A stretch of 64,000 nt of DNA from Candidatus Makana argininalis (GTDB lineage Bacteria > Pseudomonadota > Gammaproteobacteria > Enterobacterales > Enterobacteriaceae). Position 1 is the first letter of the stretch; each line of letters opens with the position of its first letter. The position numbers and the translations under genes are program-made. Under the pieces are notes generated by a model, which was not told the origin of the DNA, did no database searches, and saw nothing but the letters and a program-made list of their open reading frames with translations. The DNA is taken from contig JBISJU010000001.1 in assembly GCA_044442865.1 (NCBI GenBank), forward strand, positions 31,402 through 95,401, read 5' to 3'. Shown here piece after piece: positions 8,305 to 47,330 of this stretch.

Positions 8305-10110
8305 TTATTTTAATTTTGATTTTATATAATAATTTAAAACATTATTTGTGGAATACAAAGAAAAATTATTTTTTGAACTATTTATTGCAGTATAAATTAT
8401 TTCTCTTGTGTAAAGATTTGAAATATTATCAGGTAATACTAATGAAGTTTTATTAAAAATAAAACTAGTTGATGTTTTTGCTAGAACAGCAAATGCAGTT
8501 TCATATTTAGGTAAAAAAAATATTTTATCTTTTTTGATTATTTTATTATTTTTCAAAAAAAAAATATTAATATTTTTTTTACTATCAAACATAATTATAC
8601 CAATATCATTTTTATATATTTCTAAATAATTTGAATTTTCAGTAAAAATAATTGGTTTTCCATTATATTCTTTTTTTGAATTTTTTATTTTTACCAACTT
8701 TGTTTTAATAATTAAAAGTTCTATAAAATTATTAATAAAGTTAGAACCAAAAGTACCTTTTTTAATAGCACATAATAATCTAAAATTATAAAATGATTTA
8801 AAAATAGATTTTATTGATTTTTTTTTTTTAATTTTATTTAAATAAAATTTATAATTTTCAATACAATCAAATATCATATTATTATAGTCTTTTTTACTTT
8901 TAATAAAATTAACTGAGATATTTTTAAATTTTTTAGATTTAAGTAAATTTAAAAAGTATTTATACTTTCCATAATTAACTGCATATGATAAATTATTAAT
9001 ATTAGAATATTTTTTAAATATATAATTTTTACGTAATAAATATAATTTTTTTGAAAATAACTTAAATTTTTTTTTTGTATTTTTATTTATATTAAAGTTT
9101 GATAAATTTAAGATAGAAGAATTAAAAATTAATTTATTTAAATTATTAGCGATTTTACATATATCATAAAAAATTGATCCTTTTTCAACAGATGAGATAT
9201 GGTTACTATCACCAAATAATATTATTCTTGTCTTTGGGGATAAAATAGAAATTAAATTATACATTGTTGATAAATTTATCATTGATGCTTCATCTATAAA
9301 TATTATATCTGCATGTAAAAAATTTAAAATTCTATCTTTTAAATAAAATTTAAAATTATTTTTATTAATTAAATAATTAATATTTACAGCTATTTTAGGT
9401 ATCTGTTTTTTTTTTTCACAACTTAGATTCGTATATTTTTTATAAAATTTTATTTTTTTATTTAAATTATTTAAAGATTGAAAATTATTAGATGATATTA
9501 TTATTTTAATGGGTTTTTCATTTAATTTAATAAAACAAATTAATATTTTTAATAAAATACATGTTTTTCCAGTTCTTGATTTTCCTGATATAATAGAAGA
9601 ATGATTAGTTATTGAAATAAAAGCAGCAATTTTTTGCCAATTAATAAAATAATTTTCTGAAATAAAAAACATATTTAATATTTTTAATATATTATTGTAT
9701 TTTTTAACTTTTTTAATAATATTTTTTTTAAAAAAATTTAACACATAAATTTCTTTTCTCCACATTCTATTTATATATAATTTTTTATTATATAAAATTA
9801 TGGGAGTGTTATTAGATCCATTACTTACAGATTTATGTAATAATAAATATTTTTCAAGTTTTTTAGTAGATGAAAAACAAATTTTTTTAATAGAATTTAT
9901 TAAAATATGATTAATATTACCATAAAATATTTTATTAGAAAAAAATATTTTTAAAGGAATATAAGTATGTCCATTTCTTGTATAATAACTCAGACAAGCA
10001 CTTACAAACATTAAAGATGTGTAAGGTTTTTGTGATATAGTTTTAGCAAAATTAATATCTAAAGATTTTAATAAATTTAATTTTAAAATTTCTTTAATTA
10101 TATTTTTCAT
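8305..10110 (-). CDS. recD: exodeoxyribonuclease V alpha subunit
   Basis: 601-aa ORF directly downstream of recB. Walker A GKSRTGKT, DEASMI Walker B-like motif. Length is close to E. coli RecD (608 aa). Confidence 0.85.
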   Translation of the reverse strand: MKNIIKEILKLNLLKSLDINFAKTISQKPYTSLMFVSACLSYYTRNGHTYIPLKIFFSNKIFYGNINHILINSIKKICFSSTKKLEKYLLLHKSVSNGSNNTPIILYNKKLYINRMWRKEIYVLNFFKKNIIKKVKKYNNILKILNMFFISENYFINWQKIAAFISITNHSSIISGKSRTGKTCILLKILICFIKLNEKPIKIIISSNNFQSLNNLNKKIKFYKKYTNLSCEKKKQIPKIAVNINYLINKNNFKFYLKDRILNFLHADIIFIDEASMINLSTMYNLISILSPKTRIILFGDSNHISSVEKGSIFYDICKIANNLNKLIFNSSILNLSNFNINKNTKKKFKLFSKKLYLLRKNYIFKKYSNINNLSYAVNYGKYKYFLNLLKSKKFKNISVNFIKSKKDYNNMIFDCIENYKFYLNKIKKKKSIKSIFKSFYNFRLLCAIKKGTFGSNFINNFIELLIIKTKLVKIKNSKKEYNGKPIIFTENSNYLEIYKNDIGIIMFDSKKNINIFFLKNNKIIKKDKIFFLPKYETAFAVLAKTSTSFIFNKTSLVLPDNISNLYTREIIYTAINSSKNNFSLYSTNNVLNYYIKSKLK

Positions 10111-10146
10111 AATTTTATTATTAAAATAATTTAATTTATAAAATTT

Positions 10147-13100
10147 TTAAATTAATAACTTATCTATATAATTTATTAATTTAAAATTAGGTTTACAATA
10201 AAAAATACCATTATTTTTATTTACATTATTTATACCTCTTAAAAACAAATAATATACACCACCAAAATCTTTTTTATAATTATATTTATAAAGTTTTTGT
10301 TTTAAAAAACGATGAAGTGCTAATGTATAAATTTGATATTGTAAATCATATCTATTGTTAATAATAGATTTTTCTATATTATCTATATTATAAAATTTTT
10401 CATTTTCTCCAAGCCAATTAGATTTATAATCTAAAATATAATATTTTTTATTCCATCTAAAAACTAAATCTATAAACCCTTTCATCATACCTTTTGTTTT
10501 TGGAAAATTTATATTTATACATTTATAAGTAATAAGATCATATTTTTTACAAATATTTTGTAAATTATTTGTAAAAAAAAAATCCTTAATAGGAATATAA
10601 AAAGAAAATTCATTACATTTATCTTTGGATTTTATTTTTTTAAGTGAAAGATCATTATTATCCAAATTATAATCAATAATATTTTCAATCCATTTAATTA
10701 TTACATTTTTCCACATTATATCAATATTTTTATTATTCATTATTTTATTTAAAAAATGTAAACTTATTTTTTTTTTAAAATTTATATTTTTAAGCAAAAT
10801 ATGTAAAAAATTACCTGTTATTTTTCCAGTAGGAAAATTATGTTGGTTTAAAGTTGCAATTTTAATTTTTTTTTTTTTAGAATTTTTAAATATATCTATT
10901 TTGGGTAAAGTTATATTTTTAATATATTTTAAATTTCTATTTAATGATGAATAACTAATAATTGTATCATTAACTATATTAATATTATTAATATTTTTTT
11001 TTTTTTTAAATTTTAATAATGTATTTACATTATGATTTTTTTTTTTTTTATTAAAATATTTTTTTTTACTTATTATAATATCTCCTTTTGATTTTTTAAC
11101 TAAAAATTTTATTTTATTTTCTAAAAAATTAATATCTCCAGCAACACCATTTTGAATTAAATAACCAATAGCACTTTTATGAACACTATTATTATTTGTT
11201 TTTCGATTTTTTCCTTTATGTAAAGATGATATTCCTATACTGCAATGATATATTGATCTTGTTAAAGATACATAAAGAATTCTTAAGTCTTCTGCAAGTC
11301 TCTCAATATCTATTTTATTAATTGAAATTTTTGAATTTAAAGAATTTAAATAAAATATATTTTTTTTAATTCTATAATCGGCAATAAATGGTAAAAAAAC
11401 TATTGGAAATTCCAAACCTTTTGATTTATGTACAGTTATTATATTAACAAAATTGTTATTATTTTTTAAAATTGATGTTGTATTTTTCAAATATTTATTA
11501 GATGAGTATATTTTTTCTTCCAATAATCTAATTATTGATAATCTATTCTCAAAATGTATAGATTCTTCTTGTAATAATTCACCTAAATGCATTAAATTTG
11601 AAAATTTTTTTTCACCTTCTTTTAGAAATAAAAGTTTTTTTTTAATTTTATAATCTTTAATTAACTCTTTTATCATAGGATGTATACCATATTTTTTCCA
11701 TATTATTTTATATTTAATAAATTTATTTAAATGATAATATAATATTTTTTTATTTTTATTTAACATTTTAATTTCATTAAAATCAAAACCAATAATATCT
11801 GTTATCAGAGCTTTCTTAATATATAAATTATTAGTATACAAAACTGCTTTTAATATCCACATTAAATCAACTGATTCTTTAGATTTAAATATATTTTCAC
11901 TTTTAGATATAAATATTGACGGTATATTAAATTTTGTTAATGCATTACTAATTAAATTAGCTTCATTTCCATTTCTTATTATTATTGTTATATCAGAGGC
12001 AGTAATATATTTTTTACCAAAATTTCCTTCTATCCATGTTTTTTTTTTATTTGAAGAATTTATCCAAGAAAAAATAGTATTTGCACATTTATTAGACATA
12101 TATTTTTTATATTCATGTGAATTTACTATAATATCCGGTTGTATCCAAATATTCATAGCAGGATAAATTTTGTTATTTACTATTAGTTTTAATTTTTTAT
12201 TTTCTTTGGAGTATTTTAATGGTACAAATGAAATTTCTTTAAAAATAAAAGGATTGGAAAATGAAGTAAATAAATTATTAACAGCATTAATCATTCCTTT
12301 AGAAGAACGCCAATTAACATCAAGAGTATAATGATTATTTATTTCATTTTTAGCTCTAATATATGTTAAAATATCAGCACCCCGAAAACCATAAATAGAT
12401 TGTTTAGGATCACCTATAATTAAAAAAAAACAATTTTTATAACCTATATATATTTTTTTAAAAATATTATATTGCTTTAAATCTGTATCTTGGAATTCAT
12501 CAATTATTGCTACTGGATATAATTTACGTATTTTATTTGATAATTTTGATCCAAATTTTCCTTGAATGATTTTTTCTAAAATAGTAATTAGATCATTAAA
12601 ACTAATTTTTGATCTTCTATTTTTTTCTTTTATAATATATTTTTCAATTTTGAAAACAGAAAATAAAAAAATTTCTTTTTTTATTGATAAATTATCTAAA
12701 TAGTAATTTTCAATTATTTTAAATAAAACAAAATTTTTATTATTATTTTGAATATTATTTTTAAATAAATTTGATAATTTAAATTTTGATAATTCATTAG
12801 GAACTTTATCATCAATTGTAGGTTCATTAGCCCATTTATCAATTTTATTTAACCATTTAATTATATTTTTTTTACTATAAATTTTTTTATTTATGTTAGA
12901 ATTATATATAAATTTTCTAAATAAAGAAAATTTAATCCAATTTTTTTTTAATAAATTAATATTTGATATTATATTTTTATATATTTGAATTATTGAATAA
13001 TTTTTTTTTGATAAATTATATTTTTTGTTTAAATTAATATTTAAATAGGGTGATATATTAATATAAAAATTTTTAGGATTTTTCCAGTATTTTTTTATTA

Positions 13101-13635
13101 ATATAGCTATATTATAAGGTAAAACAGAAAAATTTTTATTCCAGAAATAATAAGTTGATGTATATTTTAAAATTGATTCATCTTCTATAATCTCTTTATC
13201 AAATATAATACCAGATTGTACAATATTTTTATTTAAAATTTTTTTACAAAAACCATGAATAGTATAAATAGATAATTCATTTATTTTATTTTTAGCTATA
13301 ATTAATAATAATTTAGCTATTTTAATATTTTTTATTTTTTTAAATAATTTCATAATTATATAATTATTACTTTTTTTTTTAATACATTCATTATATAATA
13401 AATTTATGTTCTCAATTATACGATTTTTAATTTCATTTTTTGCTAATTCAGTGAATGTTACAATTAATATTTTGTCTGCTTTTATAGGTTTAAAATGATT
13501 TTTACTTATCATTCCTAAAATTAAACGTAAATATAATATAGATATAGTATATGTTTTTCCTGTTCCTGCTGATGCCTCTATTAATATATTTCCAAATAAA
13601 GGTAAATCAATTGAATTAAAAATTTTTTTAATCAT
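10147..13635 (-). CDS. recB: exodeoxyribonuclease V beta subunit
   Basis: 1162-aa ORF. N-terminal UvrD-type Walker A (EASAGTGKTYTI), DEFQDTD, and C-terminal nuclease motif GFIDLVF...ILDYKSN. Confidence 0.92.
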   Translation of the reverse strand: MIKKIFNSIDLPLFGNILIEASAGTGKTYTISILYLRLILGMISKNHFKPIKADKILIVTFTELAKNEIKNRIIENINLLYNECIKKKSNNYIIMKLFKKIKNIKIAKLLLIIAKNKINELSIYTIHGFCKKILNKNIVQSGIIFDKEIIEDESILKYTSTYYFWNKNFSVLPYNIAILIKKYWKNPKNFYINISPYLNINLNKKYNLSKKNYSIIQIYKNIISNINLLKKNWIKFSLFRKFIYNSNINKKIYSKKNIIKWLNKIDKWANEPTIDDKVPNELSKFKLSNLFKNNIQNNNKNFVLFKIIENYYLDNLSIKKEIFLFSVFKIEKYIIKEKNRRSKISFNDLITILEKIIQGKFGSKLSNKIRKLYPVAIIDEFQDTDLKQYNIFKKIYIGYKNCFFLIIGDPKQSIYGFRGADILTYIRAKNEINNHYTLDVNWRSSKGMINAVNNLFTSFSNPFIFKEISFVPLKYSKENKKLKLIVNNKIYPAMNIWIQPDIIVNSHEYKKYMSNKCANTIFSWINSSNKKKTWIEGNFGKKYITASDITIIIRNGNEANLISNALTKFNIPSIFISKSENIFKSKESVDLMWILKAVLYTNNLYIKKALITDIIGFDFNEIKMLNKNKKILYYHLNKFIKYKIIWKKYGIHPMIKELIKDYKIKKKLLFLKEGEKKFSNLMHLGELLQEESIHFENRLSIIRLLEEKIYSSNKYLKNTTSILKNNNNFVNIITVHKSKGLEFPIVFLPFIADYRIKKNIFYLNSLNSKISINKIDIERLAEDLRILYVSLTRSIYHCSIGISSLHKGKNRKTNNNSVHKSAIGYLIQNGVAGDINFLENKIKFLVKKSKGDIIISKKKYFNKKKKNHNVNTLLKFKKKKNINNINIVNDTIISYSSLNRNLKYIKNITLPKIDIFKNSKKKKIKIATLNQHNFPTGKITGNFLHILLKNINFKKKISLHFLNKIMNNKNIDIMWKNVIIKWIENIIDYNLDNNDLSLKKIKSKDKCNEFSFYIPIKDFFFTNNLQNICKKYDLITYKCININFPKTKGMMKGFIDLVFRWNKKYYILDYKSNWLGENEKFYNIDNIEKSIINNRYDLQYQIYTLALHRFLKQKLYKYNYKKDFGGVYYLFLRGINNVNKNNGIFYCKPNFKLINYIDKLLI

Positions 13636-13676
13636 ATAATTTATTTTTTTTCAAATATTTTATTTTAATAAAAATT

Positions 13677-16600
13677 TTATATTTTATTAAATTTTAACAT
13701 TGGTAATAAATATTTTTCAAATAAAAAAAACATTTCATTTATATTTTTTTTATTTAAATGTTTAACAACTTTTTTAATGTAAATATTATTATATTCAGAA
13801 TAAAATTCTTTTTTTTGATTAAAATATTTTATTATTTGTTCTCCAACTTTTTTTTTAATATTAACATTTTTATTTAAAGTTTTATTTTTACTATTATAAC
13901 AATATTGTTTCCATATATTACTTGAACTATAAAATAACAATAAAGGTTCTAAAATTCCTTTAAAATAACCTAAAATATAAAACATTAATAAATTTTTAGC
14001 TTTTTTTTTTTTAACAGGTAAAAAATTCCACTCTCCATTTATAAAAAACATAATACTATTTTTTTTTCCATCATATAAACAATAAATTAAATGTTCTATC
14101 CATAAAATTAAACCATCTTTAATTGATATTTTTTTTGTACTCCATTTAATTATTCTATCTTTATAAAAATTATCAATCCACCCAATTAAAGTTATATTTT
14201 TAAAATTTAAACACACTTCTAAAGTTCTTTTTTTTAAAATATTAAATATTTTTATTTTATTATATAAATTAATTAATTTTTTATATTGTTCTAAAAAAAA
14301 TATTTTTCCAAATATTCCGTATTGTAGTAATCCAGAATATTTTATTTCATTAAATATTTTATTTATATTATTTTTTTTTATAATTAAATTTAATATTTTT
14401 TCTTTAATTTTGAAATTTGTGAAAATATTATTTAAATAATCTTTTTCATATGAACTTTCTATAAATGATTTATTAAAATAAATTTTTAAATTATTTATAA
14501 ACCATGTTTTAATAGGGTTATTATAAAATTCAATAATATCTTCTAGTTTTAATATTTTATTTTTAAAATTTAATAATAATTTTGAATTTAAAGATAAATC
14601 ATATTTTAATTTTAATAAATTTTTTTTAAAATAATTTTTTTTTTTTTTTAAAAAAAATGTATTTTTTTTTAAAAAAAAATTTATATCATGAAATTTAAAA
14701 ATATGTTTTATAATATTATTTATAATCTGTTTCTCTTCTAAATATTGATCTCCTTCAATATAAAAATTATTTGATATATAATAAATTAATTCATTCACAA
14801 ATGTAGAATTAGTATTAATATTATTATTTTTAATATCATTTCCAATAAAACTTACATAAAAAATATCTTTAGCAGATAAAATAGACTCTAAAAAATAATA
14901 CTTAAGATTTTCTAAAATATTAATATCACCAATTCTTGGATGTTTAAAAATCAAATTATAATTATTTTTATATTTTTTCTTTTGTATAATATTATCATTA
15001 ATTCCTAATATACATACTATTCTAAAATTTATAGAAGACATAGATTTTAAATTACAAAAATTTATTTTTCCAAATAAAAAATTATTTATTATTTTTTTTT
15101 TATTTAATTTATTAAATAATTCTTCTTTAATTAATTTTACAGAAATTTTTTCTTTAAATTTAGATTTAATACAATATTTTAATATTTTTTTCCATGTACT
15201 TTTAATAAGTGTTAAAATATTTTCTTCCTTGGGGGAAGTAGCATAAAAAAAAGAAGATATAATTTTTTCAGAAATTGAACACCAATATTTTATTTTTCTA
15301 GGTTTTAAAAGCTTTTTTTTAAAATATTTAATATTATTTATTAAATCATAAAATTTACCTAATAAACATGACGATAATCCATATGTCTTATCATATGGAA
15401 GAATTTTATTCCAAGATCCGAACTCACTATTCATTGCATAACCTAAAAACATTCTATTAAATCCAAAATCCCATGAATTTAAATTATTAATATTTTCAAT
15501 AAAATTATTATCTTTTTTTTCTTCATCTAATTCTAATTTAATTCCTGATTCTAATACCCATCTATTTAATATATCAATTTCTTTATTTTTGATATTAAAT
15601 TTACGTGATATAGATTTTACTTCTAAAAATTTTAAAATTTTTTTTGCAGATAATTTAATAAATGGTAAATCTAATAATTTCATAAAAGATAATGATATTA
15701 AATTAATTTTTTTCGATTCAATATCTGAAATATAAAATGGTAAATTATTTTTTAAATTATAATTTCCAAATATAGATTTAATTGATGCTACATAATTCTT
15801 TATATTTGGAGCCATTACAATAATATTTTGTGGTTTTAATGTTACATCTTTAGACATAATTAATAATAATTTATCATATAAAATTTCTATTTCTTTGTAA
15901 TAACTGTAACAAGCATTAATATTAATAGAAAAATCTTTTATTTTTATCATTCTTTTTAAAATTTTATTTTTATAAATATGTTTTTTATTTTCAGATGAAT
16001 AATTTTTTAAAATAAGAATGTCTTTTTTAATTAAATTTAAAATATTATTTTTAATAGGTTTAATAAATGCATTTATTTCTATAATTCTATTTAAATTAGA
16101 AATTAAATATATATATTCTTTACATTTCTTACCCCATGAAGAAAGAAAATAATTTCCTAAATTAGGTTTACTTATATAATTCAATAATACAGATTTTGTT
16201 TTATTATTTATAAAAATTATATTATTATTTTCTTTTATACATTTGTTTATTATTTTTTCAAAAAAATTAAAATCTTCTATATCTCCCCAATAATGTTTAC
16301 ATGGATTTATAAACATATTATGAATATCCATAGAATTTCCTAATAATTCTAATAATTTAATATAAATAGGAGGTAATGAAGATATTCCAAAAATAAATAC
16401 TCTATTTGGTAATTTTATATTTTTTCTTTTTTTGTTTTTTATAATATTTTTAATATTATTAAAATTTTTATCATGTTGTAAAATTAATTCATTATAATGT
16501 ACTTTATTATTTATTAATTTTCTCCATAAAAAAGATTGCCAAATCTGATCTTCATCCAAATTTTTTATTAATTTTCCTTCTTTCCAAGATTTTAACCAAT

Positions 16601-17030
16601 CAGGACGATATATTCTGTATTGATTAAAAATATAAGCTAATTGAGTAGAAAATTTAAATTTTTTTAAAATATCATTATTTTTTAAAAAATATTTAATTTT
16701 TAAAAAATATTTATTATTTAATATATCAGGTATTAAAGAAAAAATTTTCCATGTCATAATAGAATTATTACAAGTATATTTATATTTTATATTAGGTAAT
16801 AAATTAGAAATAACATTACATATAAATTTCGAAATAGTAATAAATTTTATATTTGCATATATACCAAGTTGTTCTGATAATTTAATTTTTATCCAATTTG
16901 CAATATTTTTATTTTTAACTATAATTATTTCTGGTTTTAAAGGATCATTTTTTTTTTTTTTAACAGATATTAATAAAGAAATAATTATCTTAAGCATATC
17001 TGTGCTATTTGAATGATATATTATAAACAT
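13677..17030 (-). CDS. recC: exodeoxyribonuclease V gamma subunit
   Basis: 1117-aa ORF upstream of recB-recD. Length matches E. coli RecC (1122 aa). ptrA, which sits between recC and recB in E. coli, is absent. Confidence 0.88.
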   Translation of the reverse strand: MFIIYHSNSTDMLKIIISLLISVKKKKNDPLKPEIIIVKNKNIANWIKIKLSEQLGIYANIKFITISKFICNVISNLLPNIKYKYTCNNSIMTWKIFSLIPDILNNKYFLKIKYFLKNNDILKKFKFSTQLAYIFNQYRIYRPDWLKSWKEGKLIKNLDEDQIWQSFLWRKLINNKVHYNELILQHDKNFNNIKNIIKNKKRKNIKLPNRVFIFGISSLPPIYIKLLELLGNSMDIHNMFINPCKHYWGDIEDFNFFEKIINKCIKENNNIIFINNKTKSVLLNYISKPNLGNYFLSSWGKKCKEYIYLISNLNRIIEINAFIKPIKNNILNLIKKDILILKNYSSENKKHIYKNKILKRMIKIKDFSININACYSYYKEIEILYDKLLLIMSKDVTLKPQNIIVMAPNIKNYVASIKSIFGNYNLKNNLPFYISDIESKKINLISLSFMKLLDLPFIKLSAKKILKFLEVKSISRKFNIKNKEIDILNRWVLESGIKLELDEEKKDNNFIENINNLNSWDFGFNRMFLGYAMNSEFGSWNKILPYDKTYGLSSCLLGKFYDLINNIKYFKKKLLKPRKIKYWCSISEKIISSFFYATSPKEENILTLIKSTWKKILKYCIKSKFKEKISVKLIKEELFNKLNKKKIINNFLFGKINFCNLKSMSSINFRIVCILGINDNIIQKKKYKNNYNLIFKHPRIGDINILENLKYYFLESILSAKDIFYVSFIGNDIKNNNINTNSTFVNELIYYISNNFYIEGDQYLEEKQIINNIIKHIFKFHDINFFLKKNTFFLKKKKNYFKKNLLKLKYDLSLNSKLLLNFKNKILKLEDIIEFYNNPIKTWFINNLKIYFNKSFIESSYEKDYLNNIFTNFKIKEKILNLIIKKNNINKIFNEIKYSGLLQYGIFGKIFFLEQYKKLINLYNKIKIFNILKKRTLEVCLNFKNITLIGWIDNFYKDRIIKWSTKKISIKDGLILWIEHLIYCLYDGKKNSIMFFINGEWNFLPVKKKKAKNLLMFYILGYFKGILEPLLLFYSSSNIWKQYCYNSKNKTLNKNVNIKKKVGEQIIKYFNQKKEFYSEYNNIYIKKVVKHLNKKNINEMFFLFEKYLLPMLKFNKI

Positions 17031-17082
17031 AATGTTATATATTATTTTTTTTATTTTTAAATTTAAATTAAATAAATTATTT

Positions 17083-20649: not shown

Positions 20650-22495
20650 TTAATCATCTAAAAAACTTCTTAATATTTCTGATCTGCTAGGGTGACGTAA
20701 TTTACGTAAAGCTTTTGCTTCTATTTGACGAATTCTTTCTCTTGTAACTTCAAATTTTTTACCCACTTCTTCTAAAGTATGATCTGTATTCATATCTATT
20801 CCAAATCTCATACGTAAGACTTTAGCTTCTCTAACAGTAAGACCTGCTAAAATATTATTAGTAGCATATCTTAAACTATCTGATGTTGCAGAATCTAATG
20901 GTAATTCAATGTTATTATCTTCAATAAAATCACATAAATGTGCATCTTCATCATTACCTATTTGTGTTTCCATAGAAATAGGTTCTTTAGCGATTTTTAA
21001 AACTTTTCTTATTTTATCTTCTGAAATCATCATTCTTTCAGATAATTCTTCTGGTGTTGGTTCTCTACCTATTTCTTGAATAATTTGTCTTGAAGTTCTA
21101 TTTAATTTATTTATAGTTTCAATCATATGTACTGGTATACGTATTGTACGAGCTTGATCAGCAATTGATCTTGTAATGGATTGGCGTATCCACCATGTTG
21201 CATAAGTAGAAAATTTATAACCACGTTTATATTCAAATTTATCTACAGCTTTCATTAACCCTATATTTCCTTCTTGTATAAGATCTAAAAATTGTAAACC
21301 TCTATTTAAATATTTTTTAGCTATAGATATAACAAGACGTAGATTAGATTCAACCATTTCTTTTTTTGATTTAATAATGTTTATTTTTCCTATAAAAATA
21401 CTTCTATTTATATTTTTTAATTGTCTAATTGTTAGTTTTGTTTGTTTTTCAATTTTATTTAATTCAAATGTATTAACATTTATATCTTTATTTATTTTTT
21501 TTAATTTAATTGACCATGGTGTATTACAAGAAATTGCATAATTAAACCAATTTATTGTTTTATTATTATTATTATTATAAATTTTTACAAAAGTTTTTTT
21601 TGGCATATTACATTTATAAATACATAACTTTATTATTTTATTTTCTTGTATTTTTATTTTATTCATAATAATACTAATTTTATTCATAAGAAAATTCAAT
21701 TGTTTATGAGATAATTTAAATTGTTTAAATATATTATTTAGTTTTTTAATTTCTATTAATGCTTTATAATGATTTCTACCATATTTTTTTATTATTTTTA
21801 TTGTTATCTTGTTTTGTGCACTTAATGCTATAAATTTTTTATTTGCTATTTTAAAATTAATTTTATTATAATTATTCATTCTTTCTTTATTTTTATTATT
21901 ATGTTCTTCTATATTATTTCCAAAATATTTTTCTTTTTTAGATAATTCATTTTTAATATTATTTATTAAAAACAATTCTTTTGAATTTTTATCTATAATA
22001 TTAGATATTACATCAGTTAATTTTATTTTACCTTTTTTAATGTATTCATATTGTTTTAATATATAAATCACAGTATTTGGATATTTAGATATAGATATTC
22101 TAACATTATTTATTCCGTGTTCTATTCGTTTAGATATATTTATTTCTTGTTTTCTATTTAATAAATCAACTGTTCCCATTTCTTTCATATACATTCTTAT
22201 TGCATCATTTGTTTTATATATTTCTGAATCTGAATTTGAAATACATTTATGTGATTCATGTAATATATGTGTATGATAATTATTTTTTTTATTTAAAATA
22301 ACATTATGTAAATTAATATTTTTTTCTATAATTTTTATGCCAATTTTATTAATAATATTAATTATATTTTTAATATTAATATGTTTTTTAAAATCAGCTT
22401 TAATATGATTGTTAATTTGTGAAAAAGTTAAATAACCTTTTTTTTTACCAATTTTAATAAGTAAATTTGTGTTTGTTTTTTTTTTTTTTTTTCAT
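20650..22495 (-). CDS. rpoD: RNA polymerase sigma-70 factor RpoD; the N-terminal ~100 codons are out of frame with the only ATG across an A17 tract
   Basis: The ORF track gives 514 aa from an internal Met (22194), with regions 2-4 almost identical to E. coli sigma-70. The same frame stays open and region-1.1-like up to 22492. The ATG at 22495-22493 is followed by A17 (T17 on the + strand, 22476-22492) and is 1 nt out of frame. The span is 1846 nt, i.e. 615 codons + 1 nt. Confidence 0.93.
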
Positions 22496-22563
22496 AATAT
22501 TACATCCAATTTATTTAAATAAATTTTATTAATTATAAATTATATTTTATAAATATTATTTTT

Positions 22564-28852: not shown

Positions 28853-28916
28853 AAATTTAAACATTATTTATATAATTAAATAATATAATTTAATTATATA
28901 AATAATGTTTAAATTT
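28853..28916. repeat. perfect 29-bp inverted repeat with a 6-nt loop in the rne/rluC divergent intergenic region
   Basis: 28853-28881 pairs without mismatch with 28888-28916. The loop is AATATA. Confidence 0.9.
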
Positions 28917-28938
28917 AATCACTTTTATAAAATTAACT

Positions 28939-29886
28939 ATGATTATAAAAAAATTTAAATTAATTAATGTTTCTTATGAAAAATCTAATCAAAGAATAGA
29001 TAATTTTTTAATTCATTATTTTAAAAAAATATCAAAAAATTTATTATATTTGTTTATTCGTAAAGGTTTAATTTTAGTTAATAATAAAAAAATAAACCAA
29101 AAATATAAAATAAATTATAATGATATAATAAAAATTCCAGAAATAATTTTAAAAAAAAAAAAAAAAATAAAAATTATAAATAACATAAAAATTGATTTAT
29201 TAAAAAAATCGATAATTTATGAAGATAATTATCTTATTATTATTAATAAACCATCTGAAATATCAGTACATGGATGTTTAAATTCAAGAATAGGTATTAT
29301 TGAATATTTTAGAATTTTACGTCCTAAATTAAGTTTTTTAGAATTAGTGCATAGATTAGATAAAGAAACATCAGGAGTATTAATTTTGGCAAAAAAAAAA
29401 ACAATTTTATGTGATTTACATAATCAATTAAGAGATAAAAAAATCAAAAAAGAATATTTAGCTTTAGTTAAAGGTCGTTGGAATAAAAATATTAAATATG
29501 TATCTCAACCATTATTAAAAAAAAAAAAAAATAATAATAAACATATGGTAAAAATTAATAGTTCAGGAAAAAAATCTAAAACATTATTTAATGTAAAAGA
29601 AAGATTTAAAATAGCAACTTTACTAAAAGTTATTCCATTAACTGGAAGAACTCATCAAATTAGAGTTCATGCCTTATTTGCAGGACATCCTATAGCATTT
29701 GATAATAGATATGGTGATAAAAGTTTTGATAAAAAATTAAAACTGTGTGGACTTAAAAGTTTATTTTTACATGCAAGTTCAATTATTTTTAATCATCCTG
29801 TTAATCATAAAATCATAAATATAAAAGCTGAATTAAATTTAAAAATGAAAGAATGTATAATATATTTACGTGAATATAATAAATAA
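28939..29886 (+). CDS. rluC: 23S rRNA pseudouridine synthase RluC
   Basis: 315-aa ORF. RluA-family catalytic motif HRLDKETSGVL and GRTHQIRVH. Position is divergent from rne. Contains in-frame A17 and A15 tracts. Confidence 0.88.
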   Translation: MIIKKFKLINVSYEKSNQRIDNFLIHYFKKISKNLLYLFIRKGLILVNNKKINQKYKINYNDIIKIPEIILKKKKKIKIINNIKIDLLKKSIIYEDNYLIIINKPSEISVHGCLNSRIGIIEYFRILRPKLSFLELVHRLDKETSGVLILAKKKTILCDLHNQLRDKKIKKEYLALVKGRWNKNIKYVSQPLLKKKKNNNKHMVKINSSGKKSKTLFNVKERFKIATLLKVIPLTGRTHQIRVHALFAGHPIAFDNRYGDKSFDKKLKLCGLKSLFLHASSIIFNHPVNHKIINIKAELNLKMKECIIYLREYNK

Positions 29887-31219: not shown

Positions 31220-31342
31220 TTTTATTTAAAATAAATAATTAAATTAAAAATGATATAATGATTTATTATTAAATTAATTAAATTAATTAAATTAATTAAA
31301 ATAAAATATTTAATTAAATTTTTGAAAAACTAAAATAATAAT

Positions 31343-32299
31343 ATGTCTAAACTAGATAACATTAAATTAATAATATTGGGATCTGGTCCTGCTGGTTACA
31401 CAGCATCAATTTATGCATCTAGAGCAAATCTTAATCCTGTTTTAATTACAGGAAGTAATCCAGGTGGACAATTAAATATAAATACTTTAATAGAAAATTG
31501 GCCAGGTGATGTAAATAAATTAACAGGATTTGAATTAATGCATAGGATGAATAATCATGCACTAAAATTCAATACAAACATTATTTTTGATAACATAATA
31601 AAGACTGATTTTAGTGTAAACCCTTTTTTAATTATTGGAGAAAAATCAGAATATACATGTGATTCTTTGATAATAGCAACAGGATCTTCAGCGAAATTTT
31701 TAGGTTTAAAATCAGAATTATTTTATAAAGGAAAAGGCTTATCTACTTGTTCAACATGTGATGGTTTTTTATACAAAAATAAAAAAGTTGCAATAGTAGG
31801 AGGGGGTAATTCTGCTGTAGAATCAGCACTTTATTTATCTAAAATATCTAAAGAAGTTAATTTAATACACAGAAGTAATATTTTTAGAGCTGAAAAAATT
31901 CTTATGGATAGATTAAATGATAAAATCAAAAACAAAAATATTATATTACATACAAATAAAATTGTTAAAAAAATTATTGGAAATAATATTTGTGTTACAG
32001 GTTTAAAATTAAAAAATCAAAATAACAATAAATATGAATTTTTAAACATTGAAGGAGTTTTTATTTCAATAGGTCATACACCTAATACTTCTGTTTTTAA
32101 ATCACAACTTGAGCTTAGTAACGGATATATATCGGTCAACAAAAATAATAGAAATAGATTTACTGCTACATCAATAAAAGGAATATTTGCAGCAGGTGAT
32201 GTAATTGATAAATTTTATAAACAAGCAATTACTGCTGCTGGTTATGGATGCATGGCGGCTTTAGATGCTGAACGTTATTTGAACGAAAAAAATGATTGA
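31343..32299 (+). CDS. trxB: thioredoxin reductase
   Basis: 318-aa [15 protein letters not shown] motif, redox [19 protein letters not shown] motif. It is the only gene in the window ending in TGA. Confidence 0.95.
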
Positions 32300-33414: not shown

Positions 33415-34251
33415 TTATAAACCAAGAAAACCTAACCAATATCCAAATATACTTAAAACAAAAAACATTATTATAATAAACAATGAATTTATTCTTTTTT
33501 TTAATAACCACATACATAATAATGTAATAAGTAAAGGGATTAATCCAGGAATTATTTGATCTAAAATAATTTGTATTGTTATTTTTTTTTCATTTGTTAT
33601 ATTATTAGATAAGACAAATGGAATATTAACATGAGTCCATTTATTAACTAAAACACCCATAATAAATAAACCTAAAATAGAAGCACCTTCTGTTATTTTT
33701 TTAAAAAATTGATTTCCTATATTATTTATTATTTTTATACCATGTTTATATCCATAAAGAATACCATAATATCTAAAACACAATCTCACCAAATTAAATG
33801 TTATAAAAAACAATAAAGGCCCCATTAAATTTCCATTTATTGATAAACCAGCTCCAATAGCTGACAATAAAGGTCTTATTGTACCCCAAAAAATTGGATC
33901 TCCTATACCGGCTAATGGACCCATTAAACCAATTTTAATGCTATTTATAGATGAATCTTTAATTAAATATCCGTTAGCTCTTTGTTCTTCCATAGCTATG
34001 GTAACACCTAATATAGGAGCTGATACATAAGGATGGGTATTAAAAAATTCTAAATGACGTTTCATTGCTAATATTAAATCATTTTTATTTTTAGAATATA
34101 AACGTTTAATAATTGGCACTATTGAAAAACAAAAACCTAGAGATTGCATTCTTTCAAAATTCCATGAACCTTGAAAAAAATTAGATCTAATAAAAACCTT
34201 TAAAATATCAATTGATGTTATTTTTTTTTTGTATTTATTTAATTTATTCAT
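33415..34251 (-). CDS. manZ: mannose PTS EIID component
   Basis: 278-aa membrane ORF. FERMQSLGFCFS, HLEFFNTHP and GPLAGIGD match ManZ. Last gene of manXYZ. Confidence 0.9.
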   Translation of the reverse strand: MNKLNKYKKKITSIDILKVFIRSNFFQGSWNFERMQSLGFCFSIVPIIKRLYSKNKNDLILAMKRHLEFFNTHPYVSAPILGVTIAMEEQRANGYLIKDSSINSIKIGLMGPLAGIGDPIFWGTIRPLLSAIGAGLSINGNLMGPLLFFITFNLVRLCFRYYGILYGYKHGIKIINNIGNQFFKKITEGASILGLFIMGVLVNKWTHVNIPFVLSNNITNEKKITIQIILDQIIPGLIPLLITLLCMWLLKKRINSLFIIIMFFVLSIFGYWLGFLGL

Positions 34252-34267
34252 TATATTTATATCCTTA

Positions 34268-35071
34268 TTAATCTAATTCATTGTCTAAATCAATAGATTT
34301 TTTTTTAGATATATTTTTTTTTTTAAAATTATTAAAATATTTTGGATTTAATTGAATATAAATTATTGACATTATTATACCTATCATACCAAATGATACT
34401 AAATTAAATTTAGAAAATGATGCTATTACAAAACCAAGATAAAAAAACGGCATTAAATATCCAGATTTCATCATATTAATAACCATAGCATATCCAACAA
34501 TAACTATTATACCCCCTGAAACATTTAATCCATTTGTAATTACTTCAGGAATTGATTCAAGTATTTTTTTTACTAAATTTGTTTTTAAAGAAATTCCAAT
34601 AATTACAGACGGAATTGCTATCCTCATTGCTTGAAGTATTAGAGCAGATAAATGTATTAATGTTATTAATTTTATATTTCCATTACTCGCTGCTTTATCA
34701 GCAGCATGTTGAAAAGCAATATTTATAGTACGGATTATTATTGTTAATAATTGTCCTGTAGCTGCTAGTGGAATAGCTAAAGCAATACCTGAACCTATTG
34801 TCTGATTTCCAGATATAACTAATATAGTAGAAATAATAGAAGCTAATGATGAATCCGGGGACATTGATGCACCTACATTCATCCATCCTAAAGTCATCAT
34901 TTCCAAAGTTCCTCCTATTATAGTACCTGTTTTTATATCACCTAATATCAAACCAATTAAACTGCATGATATTATAGGTCTATGAAATTGAAATTCATCT
35001 AAAATAGATTCTATTCCTGAAATACAAGAAAATAAAAAAATAAATAAAATTTTAATTGTACTAATATTCAT
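34268..35071 (-). CDS. manY: mannose PTS EIIC component
   Basis: 267-aa polytopic ORF between manX and manZ. The GxLEMMTLGWMNVGA-type motif is typical of ManY. Confidence 0.9.
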   Translation of the reverse strand: MNISTIKILFIFLFSCISGIESILDEFQFHRPIISCSLIGLILGDIKTGTIIGGTLEMMTLGWMNVGASMSPDSSLASIISTILVISGNQTIGSGIALAIPLAATGQLLTIIIRTINIAFQHAADKAASNGNIKLITLIHLSALILQAMRIAIPSVIIGISLKTNLVKKILESIPEVITNGLNVSGGIIVIVGYAMVINMMKSGYLMPFFYLGFVIASFSKFNLVSFGMIGIIMSIIYIQLNPKYFNNFKKKNISKKKSIDLDNELD

Positions 35072-35089
35072 AAAATATTCCTTTAAATT

Positions 35090-36987: not shown

Positions 36988-38063
36988 ATTTTTTCCTTAT
37001 AACATTATATTAAAAATAATCGTTTTTTAAATAAAACCAATGTATGATTTTTTATCATATGCTATTATTTATATATATCATATATTTTAAATTTAGATTT
37101 TTTACGTTTATAAATATAATAAAAATATGTTTTCATTTAATTTAAACAATTAAAGTATTTATATATTATATTTATAATATTAATATATTTTTAAAATTTT
37201 TAAATTTTTTTTTTATGTTTGTTAATTAACACTTATTTATAATATAATTATTTGTATCTCTATATGTTTAAATAACTAAATCAAATAAATCATCACTGAA
37301 ATTAAAATATTTTATTAAAAATTAAAATTTTTAAATACTTTAGTATATATAATTATATTAAATATATTTAATTTTTAAATTTGTTTAGTAATATTAAAAA
37401 TATATAATTTATTGACACTGACTAATAACTATAATTATTTTATAATCATTATAACATATTTATATCTTTTAAAAAATGAAATATATTTAATTTATTCATA
37501 TATTATTAAAATTTAATTATATTAAAAATATAAATTAATAATTATAAACATATCAAAATATTTTATACTATTATTAATTTTTTTAAAAATAAACTTTTTT
37601 TAACTAATATTATACTAATTTTAATTAAATTAAAAATTTTTTATAAATAACAAAATATTTTGATATATAATTTTTTGATTTACTAAAAATATTGAATATA
37701 AATATGTTTTCAATATTTTTTTTAATATATTTTGTAAATAAATTAAAAGAATTACTATAAATCATTTTAATACATATTTATTTAATATATTTAAAATATA
37801 AATTTTTAATAAATTAATAATTTATAATAGTTATAAATTATTAATGTATATATTTTTTTTAAACAAAAATTAATTTTTGTTTTCAAATTTTTTTATAAAT
37901 TTTTAAAATATTAAATTTCATTTTAATTATAAATATAAAATAATATAAATTATTTTAAAATAACTTTAATTTAATTTAAATTATTTAATTTATAATAAAT
38001 AAATTTTATTTTATTTGTAAAATTTAAAAAATTAAATAAATTCATATAAATATTTTATAATAT

Positions 38064-39101: not shown

Positions 39102-40030
39102 TTATATAATTTTTTTATAAGCTTTTTTAATTGAATTAATATTATCAATAGAAATACATTCTATATTTTTAACTATATTTTTATTAATTTTAGTAAGTAT
39201 ATTACTTGGTCCACATTCTAATATTATTTTTACCCCGATTTTTGCAATATATTTAATAATTTTAATCCAATTTAATGGTTTATATAATTGATACAATAAT
39301 GATTTTTTAATTAAATTTATATTTTTTTCACAAGTAATACTTGTATTGTTAACAAATGGAATTTTTGGATTAATTAAATTTAATTTATCTAAAATTTTTG
39401 ATAATTCTAATGATATAGGTTTCATTAAATAAGAATGAAAAGGAAAACCAATAGGTAATAAAAAAGATTTAGCTCCAAATTCATAACATATTAAAATAGC
39501 TCTTTTTACGGCATTTTTATTTCCTGAAATTATTGTTTGATATTTAGTATTAAAAATTGCAGGAAATACTATTTCTCTTTTTGATGCTTTTTTACATGCA
39601 TAATAAATATATTTTTTATTTATACCTATAATAGCAGCCATTAATCCTTTTTTATATGGAAATAAATTTTTTATTATTTTTTCTCTATTTTTTAATAATT
39701 TTAATGTATGTTTAAATTTCAAAATACCAGAACATGTTAAACATGAATATTCTCCTAAACTATGACCCGCTATTACATTTGGGTTTATCCCTACAATGTC
39801 CTTTCATAATCGCCATATTGATATAGATGATACTAATAATACTATTTGTGATTTATATGTAAAATAAAATTTTTTTTTGTCATTATTTATTATTTTATAT
39901 AAATCATATCCTAAGAAGCATGAAGCTTCATCAAATGTATCTTTAATGATTTTGTATTTATTTATAAATTTGATGATGTTTTTTTTTTATTATATCCTTG
40001 ACCAGGAAAAACTATTGAAAATTTTTTCAT
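39102..40030 (-). pseudogene. fabD: malonyl-CoA-ACP transacylase with two lesions: frameshift in an A10 tract and an in-frame TGA at a conserved Trp
   Basis: The minus strand reads ATG-KKFSIVFPGQGYNKKK, then A10 (T10 on the + strand, 39979-39988) breaks the frame. The +1 frame continues IIKDTFDEASCFLGYDL...SISIWRL-TGA(39806-39804)-KDIVGINPNVIAGHSLGEYS and runs into the 206-aa ORF. The whole is collinear with E. coli FabD. Confidence 0.85.
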
Positions 40031-40344: not shown

Positions 40345-41374
40345 TTAATTTAAAATACAAAATGGAGTTTTTATGTTACAAAAAATATAAATTATATTTA
40401 AAATATCATTCCATGCTTTGTATTTATAATCTGTTTTAATTAAAAATTCTATTTTACGAATTAAAGTTAATATTTTAAATAAATCAAACATTGACATATT
40501 AAATATTAATTTTTTATAAATATTTTTTAGTTTATTACAATAAATGTTGTTAATTTTAAAAATCATTTTTAATTTAGTGTTATTTATTTTTTTTTTCATA
40601 TTTATTAATTTAATAATACTATTTTGAATAATTCTAATTATTAAAATTGGTTCAATTAATTCATATTTGAATTTGTTTAAAATTTTATTTAAATTATTAA
40701 TATTTCCATACATAATTAAATATATTAATTTATATGAATTAACTTCACAAATATTATCTAATGAATATAATAAAAATTTTAAGTTTATCAATTTTTTATT
40801 AAAAATTATTTCAAGACTGTTTAATGATTTATTAATTAATAATAAATTTCCATCATAATAATTATATAAATAATCTAAAGCATTATAATTTATTAATATT
40901 TGTTTTTTTTTAATAATTAATTTTAATAACTTAAATTTATTATTTTTATTTATATCAGAACAATTAATTATTATTATATTTTTACAAATTAATTTTAACC
41001 ATAAGGAATTTAAAATTAATTTGTTTAAAACATTAATTTCAAAAATTATTAATATATTTTCTTTTATATTTAAAATTAAATCTTTTATTTTTTTGTCTAT
41101 TGTATAATTGTATATGTTTTTATTAAATTTTATTAAAATTATTTTATTTTCATAAAATAAATTTTTTTCATTTATTGAAAAAAAAATATTTTTCCAATCT
41201 GTTTTAAAATTTATTAAAAAAGATAATATTTTTTTAAATTTTTTTTTTTGATAATTTAATAATATTTTTTTTACTTTCTTCTAATAAAAATTTATTTTCA
41301 CCATATATTAAGTAAAATTTATTAAAATATTTTTTTGAATTTTTAATTAAATCATATGTAAATATTGTAATCAT
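40345..41374 (-). CDS. holA: DNA polymerase III delta subunit, interrupted by a frameshift in an A11 tract
   Basis: The minus strand from ATG 41374 reads MITIFTYDLIKNSKKYFNKFYLIYGENKFLLEESKKNIIKLS, then A11 (T11 on the + strand, 41239-41249). The shifted frame FKKILSFLINFKTDWKNIFF...YYDGNLLLINKSL runs uninterrupted into the 148-aa ORF. The 1030-nt span is 343 codons + 1 nt. Position is downstream of leuS, as in E. coli. Confidence 0.8.
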
Positions 41375-45878: not shown

Positions 45879-47330
45879 TTGAAAAAAAAAAAATATTATA
45901 AAGAAGGTTTTTTTACTTTTATTAAAACAAAAAAATTTCCTTATGGAATAAATAATAAAATAATATATGAAATATCTAAAATAAAAAATGAACCAAAATG
46001 GATGCTCTATTTTAGACTTAAATCGTATAAATTTTGGAAAAAAATGAAAGAACCTCATTGGATCAAAGGATATTATAAAAAAATAAATTATAATAAAATT
46101 AATTATTATGTTAGACCAATAATTGATAATAATAAAAAAAAAATTAATGAAAATAATACAAAGTCAAGTAATAATAAAAATTATGAAAATTTCTTAACAA
46201 ATGAAATAAAATATACCTTTGATAAACTTGGTGTGCCGATTATAAATAAAAATAATAAATTTGCAGTAGATGCTATTTTTGATTCTGTTTCAGTATATAC
46301 TACATATAGTAATAAATTAGAAGATTTGGGAATTATTTTTTGTTCTTTTAGTCATGCAATTAAAAAATATCCATTTTTAGTTAAAAAATATTTAGGAATA
46401 GTTGTTCCATATTATGATAATTTTTTTTCCGCTCTTAATTCTGCTGTTTATTCAGATGGAACTTTTGTATATATACCTAAAAATACAAAATGTCCTATAG
46501 AACTGTCTACATATTTCAGAATAAATTCTGACAAAACTGGACAATTTGAAAGAACTATAATAATAGCAGATGAAGGTAGTTATGTTAGTTATATTGAAGG
46601 ATGCACAGCTCCTGATAGAAATAAGAATCAATTACATGCAGCTGTTGTTGAAGTAATTTTATTTAATAACTCAGAAGTAAAATATTCAACTGTACAAAAT
46701 TGGTTTTCAGGAAATAAACCTAATATTGGAATTTTAAATTTTGTTACCAAAAGAGCTATATGTAAAGGTAAAAATTCAAAAATGTCTTGGATTCAATCTG
46801 AAACCGGTTCATCTATAACTTGGAAATATCCTAGTGTAATTTTATATGGGGATAATTCATGTGGAAATTTTTATTCTGTATCTATTACTAATTGTTATCA
46901 ACAAGCTGATACTGGTACAAAAATGATTCATATAGGTAAAAATACAAAATCTACTATAATCTCAAAAGGAATTGCTTCTGGAAAAAGTTCAAATACTTAT
47001 CGTAGTTTAGTTAAAATTATGCCAAAAGCTACAAATTCTAAAAATTTTACACAATGTGATTCTATGATTATAGGTAAAAAATGTGGTGTATATACATTTC
47101 CTTCTATTAAATCAAGTAATAATAGTTCTATTGTAGAACATGAAGCAACTACTTCGAGTATAGAAGATGATCAATTATTATATTGTAATCAGAGAGGAAT
47201 AAATATTGATAATGCTATTTCAATAATAGCAAACGGGTTTTGTAAAGAAATTTTTTCAGAACTTCCATTGGAATTTGTGATAGAAGCAAAAAAAATATTA
47301 TCTATTAATTTAAAAAAAAGTGTTGGTTAA
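45879..47330 (+). CDS. sufB: Fe-S cluster assembly protein SufB
   Basis: 483-aa ORF with a TTG start followed by an in-frame A12. NEPKWMLYFRLKSY, TGQFERTIIIADEGSYVSYIEGC and QADTGTKMIHIGKNTKSTIISKG match SufB. Confidence 0.95.
   Translation: MKKKKYYKEGFFTFIKTKKFPYGINNKIIYEISKIKNEPKWMLYFRLKSYKFWKKMKEPHWIKGYYKKINYNKINYYVRPIIDNNKKKINENNTKSSNNKNYENFLTNEIKYTFDKLGVPIINKNNKFAVDAIFDSVSVYTTYSNKLEDLGIIFCSFSHAIKKYPFLVKKYLGIVVPYYDNFFSALNSAVYSDGTFVYIPKNTKCPIELSTYFRINSDKTGQFERTIIIADEGSYVSYIEGCTAPDRNKNQLHAAVVEVILFNNSEVKYSTVQNWFSGNKPNIGILNFVTKRAICKGKNSKMSWIQSETGSSITWKYPSVILYGDNSCGNFYSVSITNCYQQADTGTKMIHIGKNTKSTIISKGIASGKSSNTYRSLVKIMPKATNSKNFTQCDSMIIGKKCGVYTFPSIKSSNNSSIVEHEATTSSIEDDQLLYCNQRGINIDNAISIIANGFCKEIFSELPLEFVIEAKKILSINLKKSVG

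Follow-up and report, generated by a model that had tools for sequence, protein, structure and literature searches.

How does a symbiont obtain its housekeeping sigma factor when the conserved start codon of the gene lies one base out of frame with everything downstream? The question is raised by rpoD, encoding sigma-70, in a stretch of 64,000 nts from Candidatus Makana argininalis (assembly GCA_044442865.1, contig JBISJU010000001.1, positions 31,402 to 95,401), hereafter the window, with a GC content of 18.6%. Makana is a Morganella-like co-symbiont of Hawaiian Pariaconus psyllids, of which four genomes have been described, on average 279.6 kb long; their GC content is about 19.4%, their Illumina coverage about 1,200x, and each is a single circular contig (PMC11425488). 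In the window, a run of 17 adenines directly follows the rpoD start codon and carries one base too many. Our preferred explanation, held with moderate confidence and drawn from the anatomy of the 5′ end and from the neighbouring genes, is that this genomic +1 is real and would be rescued by RNA polymerase (RNAP) slippage and/or ribosome sliding on the run.

On the minus strand, the gene starts as TTGGATGTAATATT-ATG-A17-CAAAC-ACA-AAT-TTA-CTT, and the elements on which the argument relies are the following:

20650 to 22495, minus strand: the entire rpoD gene (sigma-70), made of the ATG, the A17 run, region 1.1 in the +1 frame, a 514-aa open reading frame (ORF) and a TAA stop codon.
22504 to 22509, minus strand: TTGGAT, a Shine-Dalgarno (SD)-like motif of presumed function, about 10 nts 5′ of the ATG and invariant in the window and four relatives.
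22493 to 22495, minus strand: the ancestral ATG of rpoD, aligned with the annotated ATG of the intact relatives but no longer in frame with the rest of the gene.
22476 to 22492, minus strand: the A17 homopolymer (T17 on the plus strand), site of the +1 insertion and proposed site of slippage or sliding.
22454 to 22495, minus strand: a zero-frame mini-ORF encoding a 13-residue peptide from the ATG, the product expected without slippage.
22492 to 22494, minus strand: the TGA that closes the rpoD frame upstream, overlapping the ATG and the first A of the run.
22195 to 22491, minus strand: 99 start-less codons, encoding region 1.1 (Pfam PF03979) and the first residues of region 1.2.
22192 to 22194, minus strand: the first canonical in-frame start, Met100, within the region 1.2 motif RMYMKEMG.
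22450 to 22458, minus strand: two in-frame ATT codons (22458-22456 and 22452-22450), speculative near-cognate starts 3′ of the tract, without an upstream SD-like motif.

The first-pass annotation of this locus had described an ATG (22495-22493) followed by A17 (22492-22476) with the gene body one base out of frame, and about 100 open codons upstream of the first in-frame Met, devoid of ATG, GTG or TTG and closed by a TGA at the ATG. Both descriptions were reproduced. The rpoD frame is +1 relative to the ATG and contains 99 sense codons with none of the three start codons until the ATG at 22194; the frame of the ancestral ATG terminates at the TAA 22456-22454, and the A17 run occupies codons 2-7 of rpoD. 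The assignment of the upstream stretch to sigma-70 region 1.1 also held, the 99 codons alone matching the Pfam family Sigma70_r1_1 with an E-value of 9.8e-12 and 45.1 bits (cut-off 22.5). In composition-matched shuffles, 99 stop-free codons occur with a probability of about 1e-5, and the two other frames of the same stretch contain 6 and 19 stops. Apart from the A17 lesion, no stop or indel interrupts the 614 codons of rpoD, and the 613-codon conceptual RpoD shows six Pfam domains in the order 1.1, 1.2, non-essential, 2, 3 and 4. Deletion of one A leads to a 614-aa RpoD. The earlier claim that either A16 or A19 would give 614 aa is hence correct for A16 and off by one residue for A19, which leads to 615 aa. 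Initiation at Met100 would produce a 514-aa sigma factor lacking region 1.1 (ORF 20650-22194, TAA 20650-20652), in which the Pfam match to region 1.2 begins only at model position 5. Rfam and tRNA scans of the window revealed five tRNAs only and nothing close to rpoD.

The comparison with sister genomes shows what has changed. The four relatives, metagenome-assembled genomes named either Candidatus Makana argininalis or Enterobacterales bacterium, share with the window the gene order tsaD / rpsU-dnaG-rpoD-glnS, and the conceptual RpoD is 79-82% identical to their 613/614-aa RpoDs. The features of a group 1 sigma-70 are thus all present, with the domains in order, the rpsU-dnaG-rpoD operon and a synteny equal to that of the relatives. 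In the DNA alignment, none of the five genomes departs from TTGGAT and the ATG, and the distance from the ATG to the conserved TTA CTT ATT AAA is 27 nts in the four relatives versus 28 nts in the window: a single extra A separates the window from four intact genes. The A run of the relatives is interrupted (AAT AAA AAA ATA AAA TTA AAA ATA AAT), the L004 genome having ATG followed by A10. After removal of one A, the RpoD of the window aligns residue for residue with the N-terminus of L004, and the 99 start-less codons are 66-77% identical to the relatives at the amino-acid level. The gene is in frame in all four relatives and the frameshift is unique to the window genome, so that, as read from the alignment, the window lineage appears to have replaced a broken A-rich segment by an unbroken A17 with one extra base. 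The lesion amounts to exactly one nucleotide within an A run, next to an invariant ATG and TTGGAT, and this counts in favour of a rescued frameshift.

In the proposed mechanism, the lysine-rich 5′ end of rpoD would have mutated to an uninterrupted A17 and gained one A in the window lineage, and the conserved ATG and SD-like motif would thereby have been displaced by one base from the frame of the gene. RNAP slipping on the T17 template would then generate mRNAs with A runs of varied length, in which A19 or A16 restores the frame, and ribosomes starting from the AUG could slide on the five AAA codons into the +1 frame. Full-length sigma-70 (614-615 aa) would most likely still be made, since decoding of an A run of 17 nts is imprecise. 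Several published systems provide a scale for such events. In Buchnera and Blochmannia, long poly(A) runs were associated with 12-50% of frame-corrected transcripts, as Tamas 2008 is quoted in PMC5009743, and runs of nine A/T can gain up to 6 nts (PMC5009743). Genome-wide data indicate that insertions at A/T runs become exponentially more frequent as the run lengthens, and dominate over deletions (PMC5574713). On AAA repeats, the ribosomes of E. coli begin to slide out of frame at about 11 A (PMC4363877). In B. vafer, the essential genes dnaX, dnaG and pth are frameshifted (PMC3017870). The A17 exceeds the 9-bp RNA:DNA hybrid by 8 nts and lies above the length thresholds of both slippage and sliding, hence a broad distribution of mRNA lengths, with a substantial in-frame share at any genomic length, would be expected. 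Because of the published insertion bias, corrected messages are predicted to carry A19 (615 aa, six lysines) no less often than A16. As the tract covers codons 2-7, failed events would cost just a 13- or 21-residue peptide, which may explain why the lesion is tolerable. Insertion dominance at A/T runs and ribosome sliding from A11 were both underweighted in the first-pass annotation.

The surroundings of rpoD provide a second line of evidence. All A/T runs of at least 9 nts in the window were checked against the open frames. Of the 111 found, 91 lie in genes as poly(A) on the sense strand; runs of at least 12 nts are all genic (20/20) and 19 of the 20 are in frame. The A17 of rpoD ties for the longest run in the window, and the in-frame set of 12-17 nts coding tracts includes two A15 (14635-14649 and 29517-29531). 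The tracts outside rpoD that matter here are:

29151 to 29167, plus strand: a second A17, in frame, in an RluC/D-like ORF (28906-29883), within the linker between the S4 and PseudoU_synth_2 domains.
29517 to 29531, same RluC/D-like gene: an A15, in frame and, like the second A17, of use as an internal control for homopolymer calling.
41239 to 41249, minus strand: an A11 tract splitting holA (DNA polymerase III delta, 40345-41374) into two frames.
39979 to 39988, minus strand: an A10 tract splitting fabD (39102-40030).

The holA product reads MITIFTYDLIKNSKKYFNKFYLIYGENKFLLEESKKNIIKLSKKK in one frame and then FKKILSFLINFKTDWKNIFF in the next, with the junction at the A11; read-through requires a shift of -1 or +2, as in rpoD. 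holA is intact (343 aa) in three relatives, which carry GCA followed by A13, or an interrupted equivalent, at this site. In Enterobacterales bacterium 9B (GCA_044442725.1, L015:8574-9604), holA is split independently into calls of 91 and 251 aa, at a different A10 tract located between ILKKK and IYNSLIEKK. fabD changes frame at the A10, with the N-terminal MKKFSIVFPGQGYNKKK on one side and KIIKDTFDEAS...GHSLGEYS on the other. The N-terminal FSIVFPGQGY peptide and the body of the protein are both conserved and out of frame with each other in four of the five genomes (the window, L014, L016 and L017); the spacer measures 50 nts in these four and 51 nts only in L015, where fabD is intact. The lost base is not always in the same tract, and the shifts occur at A8-A10 tracts in four independent assemblies, so that sequencing noise is not their cause. 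Based on these alignments, the poly(A) frameshift of fabD seems to be of old or repeated origin and to have been maintained, and the conservation of both halves is the signature reported for slippage-rescued genes of Blochmannia (PMC3017870). In addition, fabD of the window contains an in-frame TGA (39806-39804, minus strand) where all four relatives have a TGG Trp codon (SISIW(R/K)LWK), and the 233 codons 3′ of it are still open and conserved. This TGA may represent a nonsense mutation, a leaky UGA or the early decay of fabD.

The neighbourhood also contains a gene of the opposite kind. The tgt remnant (36997-38049) retains about 67% nucleotide identity, no ORF longer than 46 aa and almost no protein-level signal, while tgt is intact (368 aa) in all four relatives. 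It shows the state that a gene reaches here once it is truly dead, a state that the 5′ end of rpoD does not resemble. Because holA and fabD are broken at poly(A) tracts, and across genomes, the Makana clade tolerates poly(A) frameshifts. The analogy with Buchnera and Blochmannia drawn in the first-pass annotation thus fits the genomic context, with its 111 runs and two further broken genes, although the holA (A11) and fabD (A10) lesions had been missed there. These surroundings are a stronger argument for the rescue of rpoD than the openness of its own frame.

That openness had been taken as a sign that the 100 codons are still translated, by comparison with random sequence. The appropriate null is a recently frameshifted gene, for which the probability of meeting no stop is 0.10-0.35, and this part of the interpretation lacks support in the form given; overall, the interpretation is partly supported. 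In simulations of neutral substitution started from the sequences of the relatives, the frame of the 99 codons stays open with a probability of 0.10-0.13 at 22 hits (the whole branch), about 0.35 at 10 hits and about 0.6 at 5 hits. The open frame is hence a weak argument for continued translation, since a recent frameshift would look identical. Branch-specific dN/dS (omega), for which the ancestor was reconstructed by parsimony and changes were counted per branch, separates the gene body from its 5′ end. In regions 2-4, omega is 0.10 on the window branch (13 synonymous and 5 non-synonymous changes) and 0.11 on the L004 branch, where the gene is intact. The gene body is therefore strongly constrained and rpoD is functional, in line with PMC7821994, which lists rpoD among the genes kept in all extremely reduced symbionts. 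In region 1.1, with 4 synonymous and 18 non-synonymous changes, omega reaches 0.90 on the window branch, or 0.73 if the first 10 codons are left out; on the L004 branch it is 0.68-0.70. For comparison, the non-essential region gives 0.72 and 0.46 on the same two branches. At sites where the other four genomes agree, lineage-specific amino-acid changes in region 1.1 amount to 10 of 64 in the window and 11 of 65 in L004; the non-essential region of the window itself has 39 of 197. Region 1.1 shows no excess decay on the window lineage. Because it is weakly constrained even when intact, dN/dS, whether pairwise or branch-specific, is powerless to distinguish a translated from a silent region 1.1.

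Several observations weigh against a rescued frameshift. The rpoD lesion is found in a single genome, may be very recent or polymorphic, and does not show the signature of an ancient conserved frameshift. The omega of region 1.1 (0.73-0.90) is indistinguishable from neutrality, and a frame without stops has a probability of 0.10-0.35 under recent neutral decay. Correction requires -1 or +2, while single-nt insertions are the commonest product of slippage (PMC5574713). Finally, the sequence was obtained from PCR-amplified Illumina libraries assembled with MEGAHIT, in which a miscall of A17 by one base is possible.

The last point leads to the simplest rival, a homopolymer error in sequencing or assembly, according to which the true tract is A16 (or A19) and rpoD an ordinary intact gene. 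We regard it as unlikely, though as a serious contender. The libraries were PCR-amplified NEB FS preparations of single insects, sequenced on a NextSeq 2000, and the source describes no homopolymer validation. The error would fall on a run tied for longest in the window, where stutter is worst, and in the only genome with the lesion. RpoD of the source genome is absent from the released proteins, which is consistent with a frameshift flag raised by the annotation pipeline and silent on whether the frameshift is real. Set against this, the other 19 coding tracts of 12-17 nts are in frame, including the second A17 and two A15, showing that the assembly is generally accurate at long tracts, and coverage is about 1,200x. 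Frameshifts at the easier A8-A11 tracts of holA and fabD recur across independent assemblies, so that real poly(A) frameshifts do exist in the clade. PCR stutter on long mononucleotide runs is moreover usually biased to contraction and not to +1. The length variation could also lie in the DNA itself, a hypermutable tract being present in the polyploid symbiont population as a mixture of A16, A17, A18 and A19 copies, of which the in-frame ones supply sigma-70 and A17 is the modal or assembled one. Long mononucleotide runs are the most indel-prone DNA, each insect houses a large symbiont population, and the lengths of homologous tracts vary among Makana genomes (A11 versus A13 in holA, A9 versus A10 in fabD). 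Makana retains mutS and recBCD according to the source paper, which should restrain indels somewhat, and we consider heteroplasmy quite improbable; it is also compatible with slippage at the level of expression, to which it would add.

A real shift with no useful degree of rescue would mark the onset of region 1.1 loss: sigma-70 would be made as a 514-aa protein from Met100 or a nearby Met, and the 99 codons would be a young pseudo-segment. The precedent comes from other tiny-genome symbionts. In Stammera, RpoD of CP144782 (L013:2965-4521) has only 15 residues before region 1.2, and those of L010 (Stammera) and L009 (entHe1) have short N-termini without a Sigma70_r1_1 match, while two other Stammera genomes (L011 and L012) retain region 1.1. 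Such a sigma factor is hence viable in tiny-genome symbionts, making truncation a live alternative, one that the first-pass annotation also underweighted. Region 1.1 is reported to be poorly conserved and probably non-essential for initiation (PMC7641759), and constraint on it is weak in Makana even where it is intact (omega of about 0.7, against 0.73-0.90 on the window branch). However, 99 AT-rich codons have accumulated no stop or indel after about 22 substitutions (P of 0.10-0.13 if the shift is old), and neither the ancestral ATG nor the SD-like motif has changed. A start at Met100, which falls within region 1.2, would also deprive the sigma factor of the initial residues of that region, which the natural truncation in Stammera leaves whole. 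An A17 is in addition expected to slip, whether or not slippage is selected. We judge a loss of region 1.1 somewhat less probable than an assembly error. Initiation at one of the ATT codons (22458-22456 or 22452-22450) would instead produce a sigma-70 shortened by about 12 poorly conserved N-terminal residues. Both codons are in frame just 3′ of the tract, conservation of region 1.1 in the alignment is lowest over its first 10 residues, and an A-rich unstructured leader could favour SD-independent initiation. Nevertheless, AUU is a very weak initiation codon in E. coli, no SD-like motif precedes these codons, the conserved ATG and its SD-like motif would compete, and the remaining genes of the window start with ATG or TTG at the expected place, rendering this reading very improbable. 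A reassignment of UGA to Trp (code 4) would turn the upstream TGA into a sense codon and let the TTG at 22509-22507, in frame by arithmetic, start a full-length protein (LDVILWKKKKKT...). The in-frame TGA of fabD, where relatives have TGG, and the scarcity of TGA terminators (1 of 52 genes in the window, the trxB-like ORF 31334-32296, versus 49 TAA and 2 TAG) are what such a code would predict. The window nevertheless encodes Trp by TGG 160 times and has just one in-frame TGA, and the relatives terminate 6 of 76 gene calls with TGA. The TTG lies within the conserved TTGGAT, and in none of the relatives is it in frame; for the already frameshifted fabD a nonsense mutation is simpler. Code 4 with a TTG start was rejected on codon and terminator usage, and we give it next to no credence.

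Rescue by slippage and/or sliding has its closest known counterparts in Buchnera and Blochmannia (Tamas et al. 2008; Wernegreen et al. 2010; B. vafer, PMC3017870). These cases share with Makana an AT-rich reduced genome with many runs of at least 9 nts, a single indel within a sense-strand poly(A) run of an otherwise intact gene, hits in information-processing genes whose remainder is under purifying selection, and several affected genes per genome. They differ in the gene, rpoD being hit in Makana, and in the length of the run, 17 nts against the "as long as 12" quoted for Blochmannia. With the tract at codons 2-7, the whole gene depends on correction, and not just a C-terminal part. The rpoD shift is also not common to sister genomes. 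Across strains, the frameshift is not conserved in rpoD (all four relatives in frame), but it is in fabD, where four genomes out of five are shifted. The rpoD case is of the same kind as those of Buchnera and Blochmannia; the clade, the longer tract, the 5′-terminal position and the more central gene are new, and the mechanism is not. In the searchable literature, no report of a frameshifted rpoD in symbionts came up.

Ribosome sliding as described by Koutmou et al. 2015 (PMC4363877) involves the same consecutive AAA codons in runs of at least 11 A, on which E. coli ribosomes lose the frame in both directions; in rpoD, the AUG is followed by five AAA codons within the A17. There, sliding is an error leading to a truncated product, while in Makana it would be productive and frame-restoring. 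Programmed transcriptional realignment, as in Thermus dnaX, Shigella mxiE, transposases of insertion sequences and Citrobacter tssM (PMC5009743), likewise relies on an A/T run of at least 9 nts, length variants of the mRNA and products in several frames. Those sites are conserved and set the ratio of products, whereas that of rpoD is confined to one lineage and resembles a lesion that is tolerated. A programmed ribosomal frameshift site of the prfB (+1) or dnaX (-1) type was considered and rejected, since the relatives read a single frame with an interrupted A run. In phase-variable contingency loci, the 5′ position of the tract fits and the class of gene, a housekeeping one, does not. If rpoD were unrescued, the outcome would be that of Stammera capleta CP144782, a primary sigma factor starting from about region 1.2, with the difference that in Stammera region 1.1 is deleted and region 1.2 complete, and in the window the 99 codons are present, open and recognisable.

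A regulatory role of the tract is also conceivable. The A17 could act as a dosage or isoform valve that sets the ratio of full-length sigma-70 to the Met100 form lacking region 1.1, an idea we put forward as speculation and believe to be improbable. In this reading, rpoD mRNA in the correct frame would result solely from infidelity of RNAP during elongation, with ribosome sliding in addition. If true, the two sigma forms would differ in promoter-complex stability, and the supply of sigma would be coupled to the fidelity of the very RNAP that sigma programs, providing a crude global regulator in a genome stripped of most transcription factors.

If the frameshift is real and rescued, a symbiont of 277 kb would need decoding errors to obtain its only housekeeping sigma factor at full length. 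The rescue of impaired genes by an unfaithful polymerase would then extend to Makana, in Hawaiian Pariaconus psyllids, to a longer tract and to the most central of the transcription genes. Annotators should not count rpoD, holA and fabD as lost in Makana genomes. Together with the Stammera RpoDs lacking region 1.1, Makana rpoD would form a natural series on the dispensability of this region in reduced genomes. The RpoDs of L013, L010 and L009, compared with those of the two Stammera genomes retaining region 1.1, already represent such a series of natural loss.

Long A runs near gene starts are seen elsewhere in the window. sufB apparently starts with TTG followed by A12 (TTG AAA AAA AAA AAA, 45879-45893, plus strand), and the dnaB-like (25887) and rne-like (28724) genes have long A runs inside their first 15 codons, hence the arrangement at rpoD is a common gene-start architecture in the window. 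The ORFs at 33418-35089, suspected of being a split gene, turned out to be manY and manZ, two separate genes. Three ORFs on the minus strand at 8308-17081, of 613, 1167 and 1134 codons, fit recD, recB and recC, which the source paper reports as kept in Makana, and are candidates for these genes; together they contain seven in-frame poly(A) runs of 12-15 nts.

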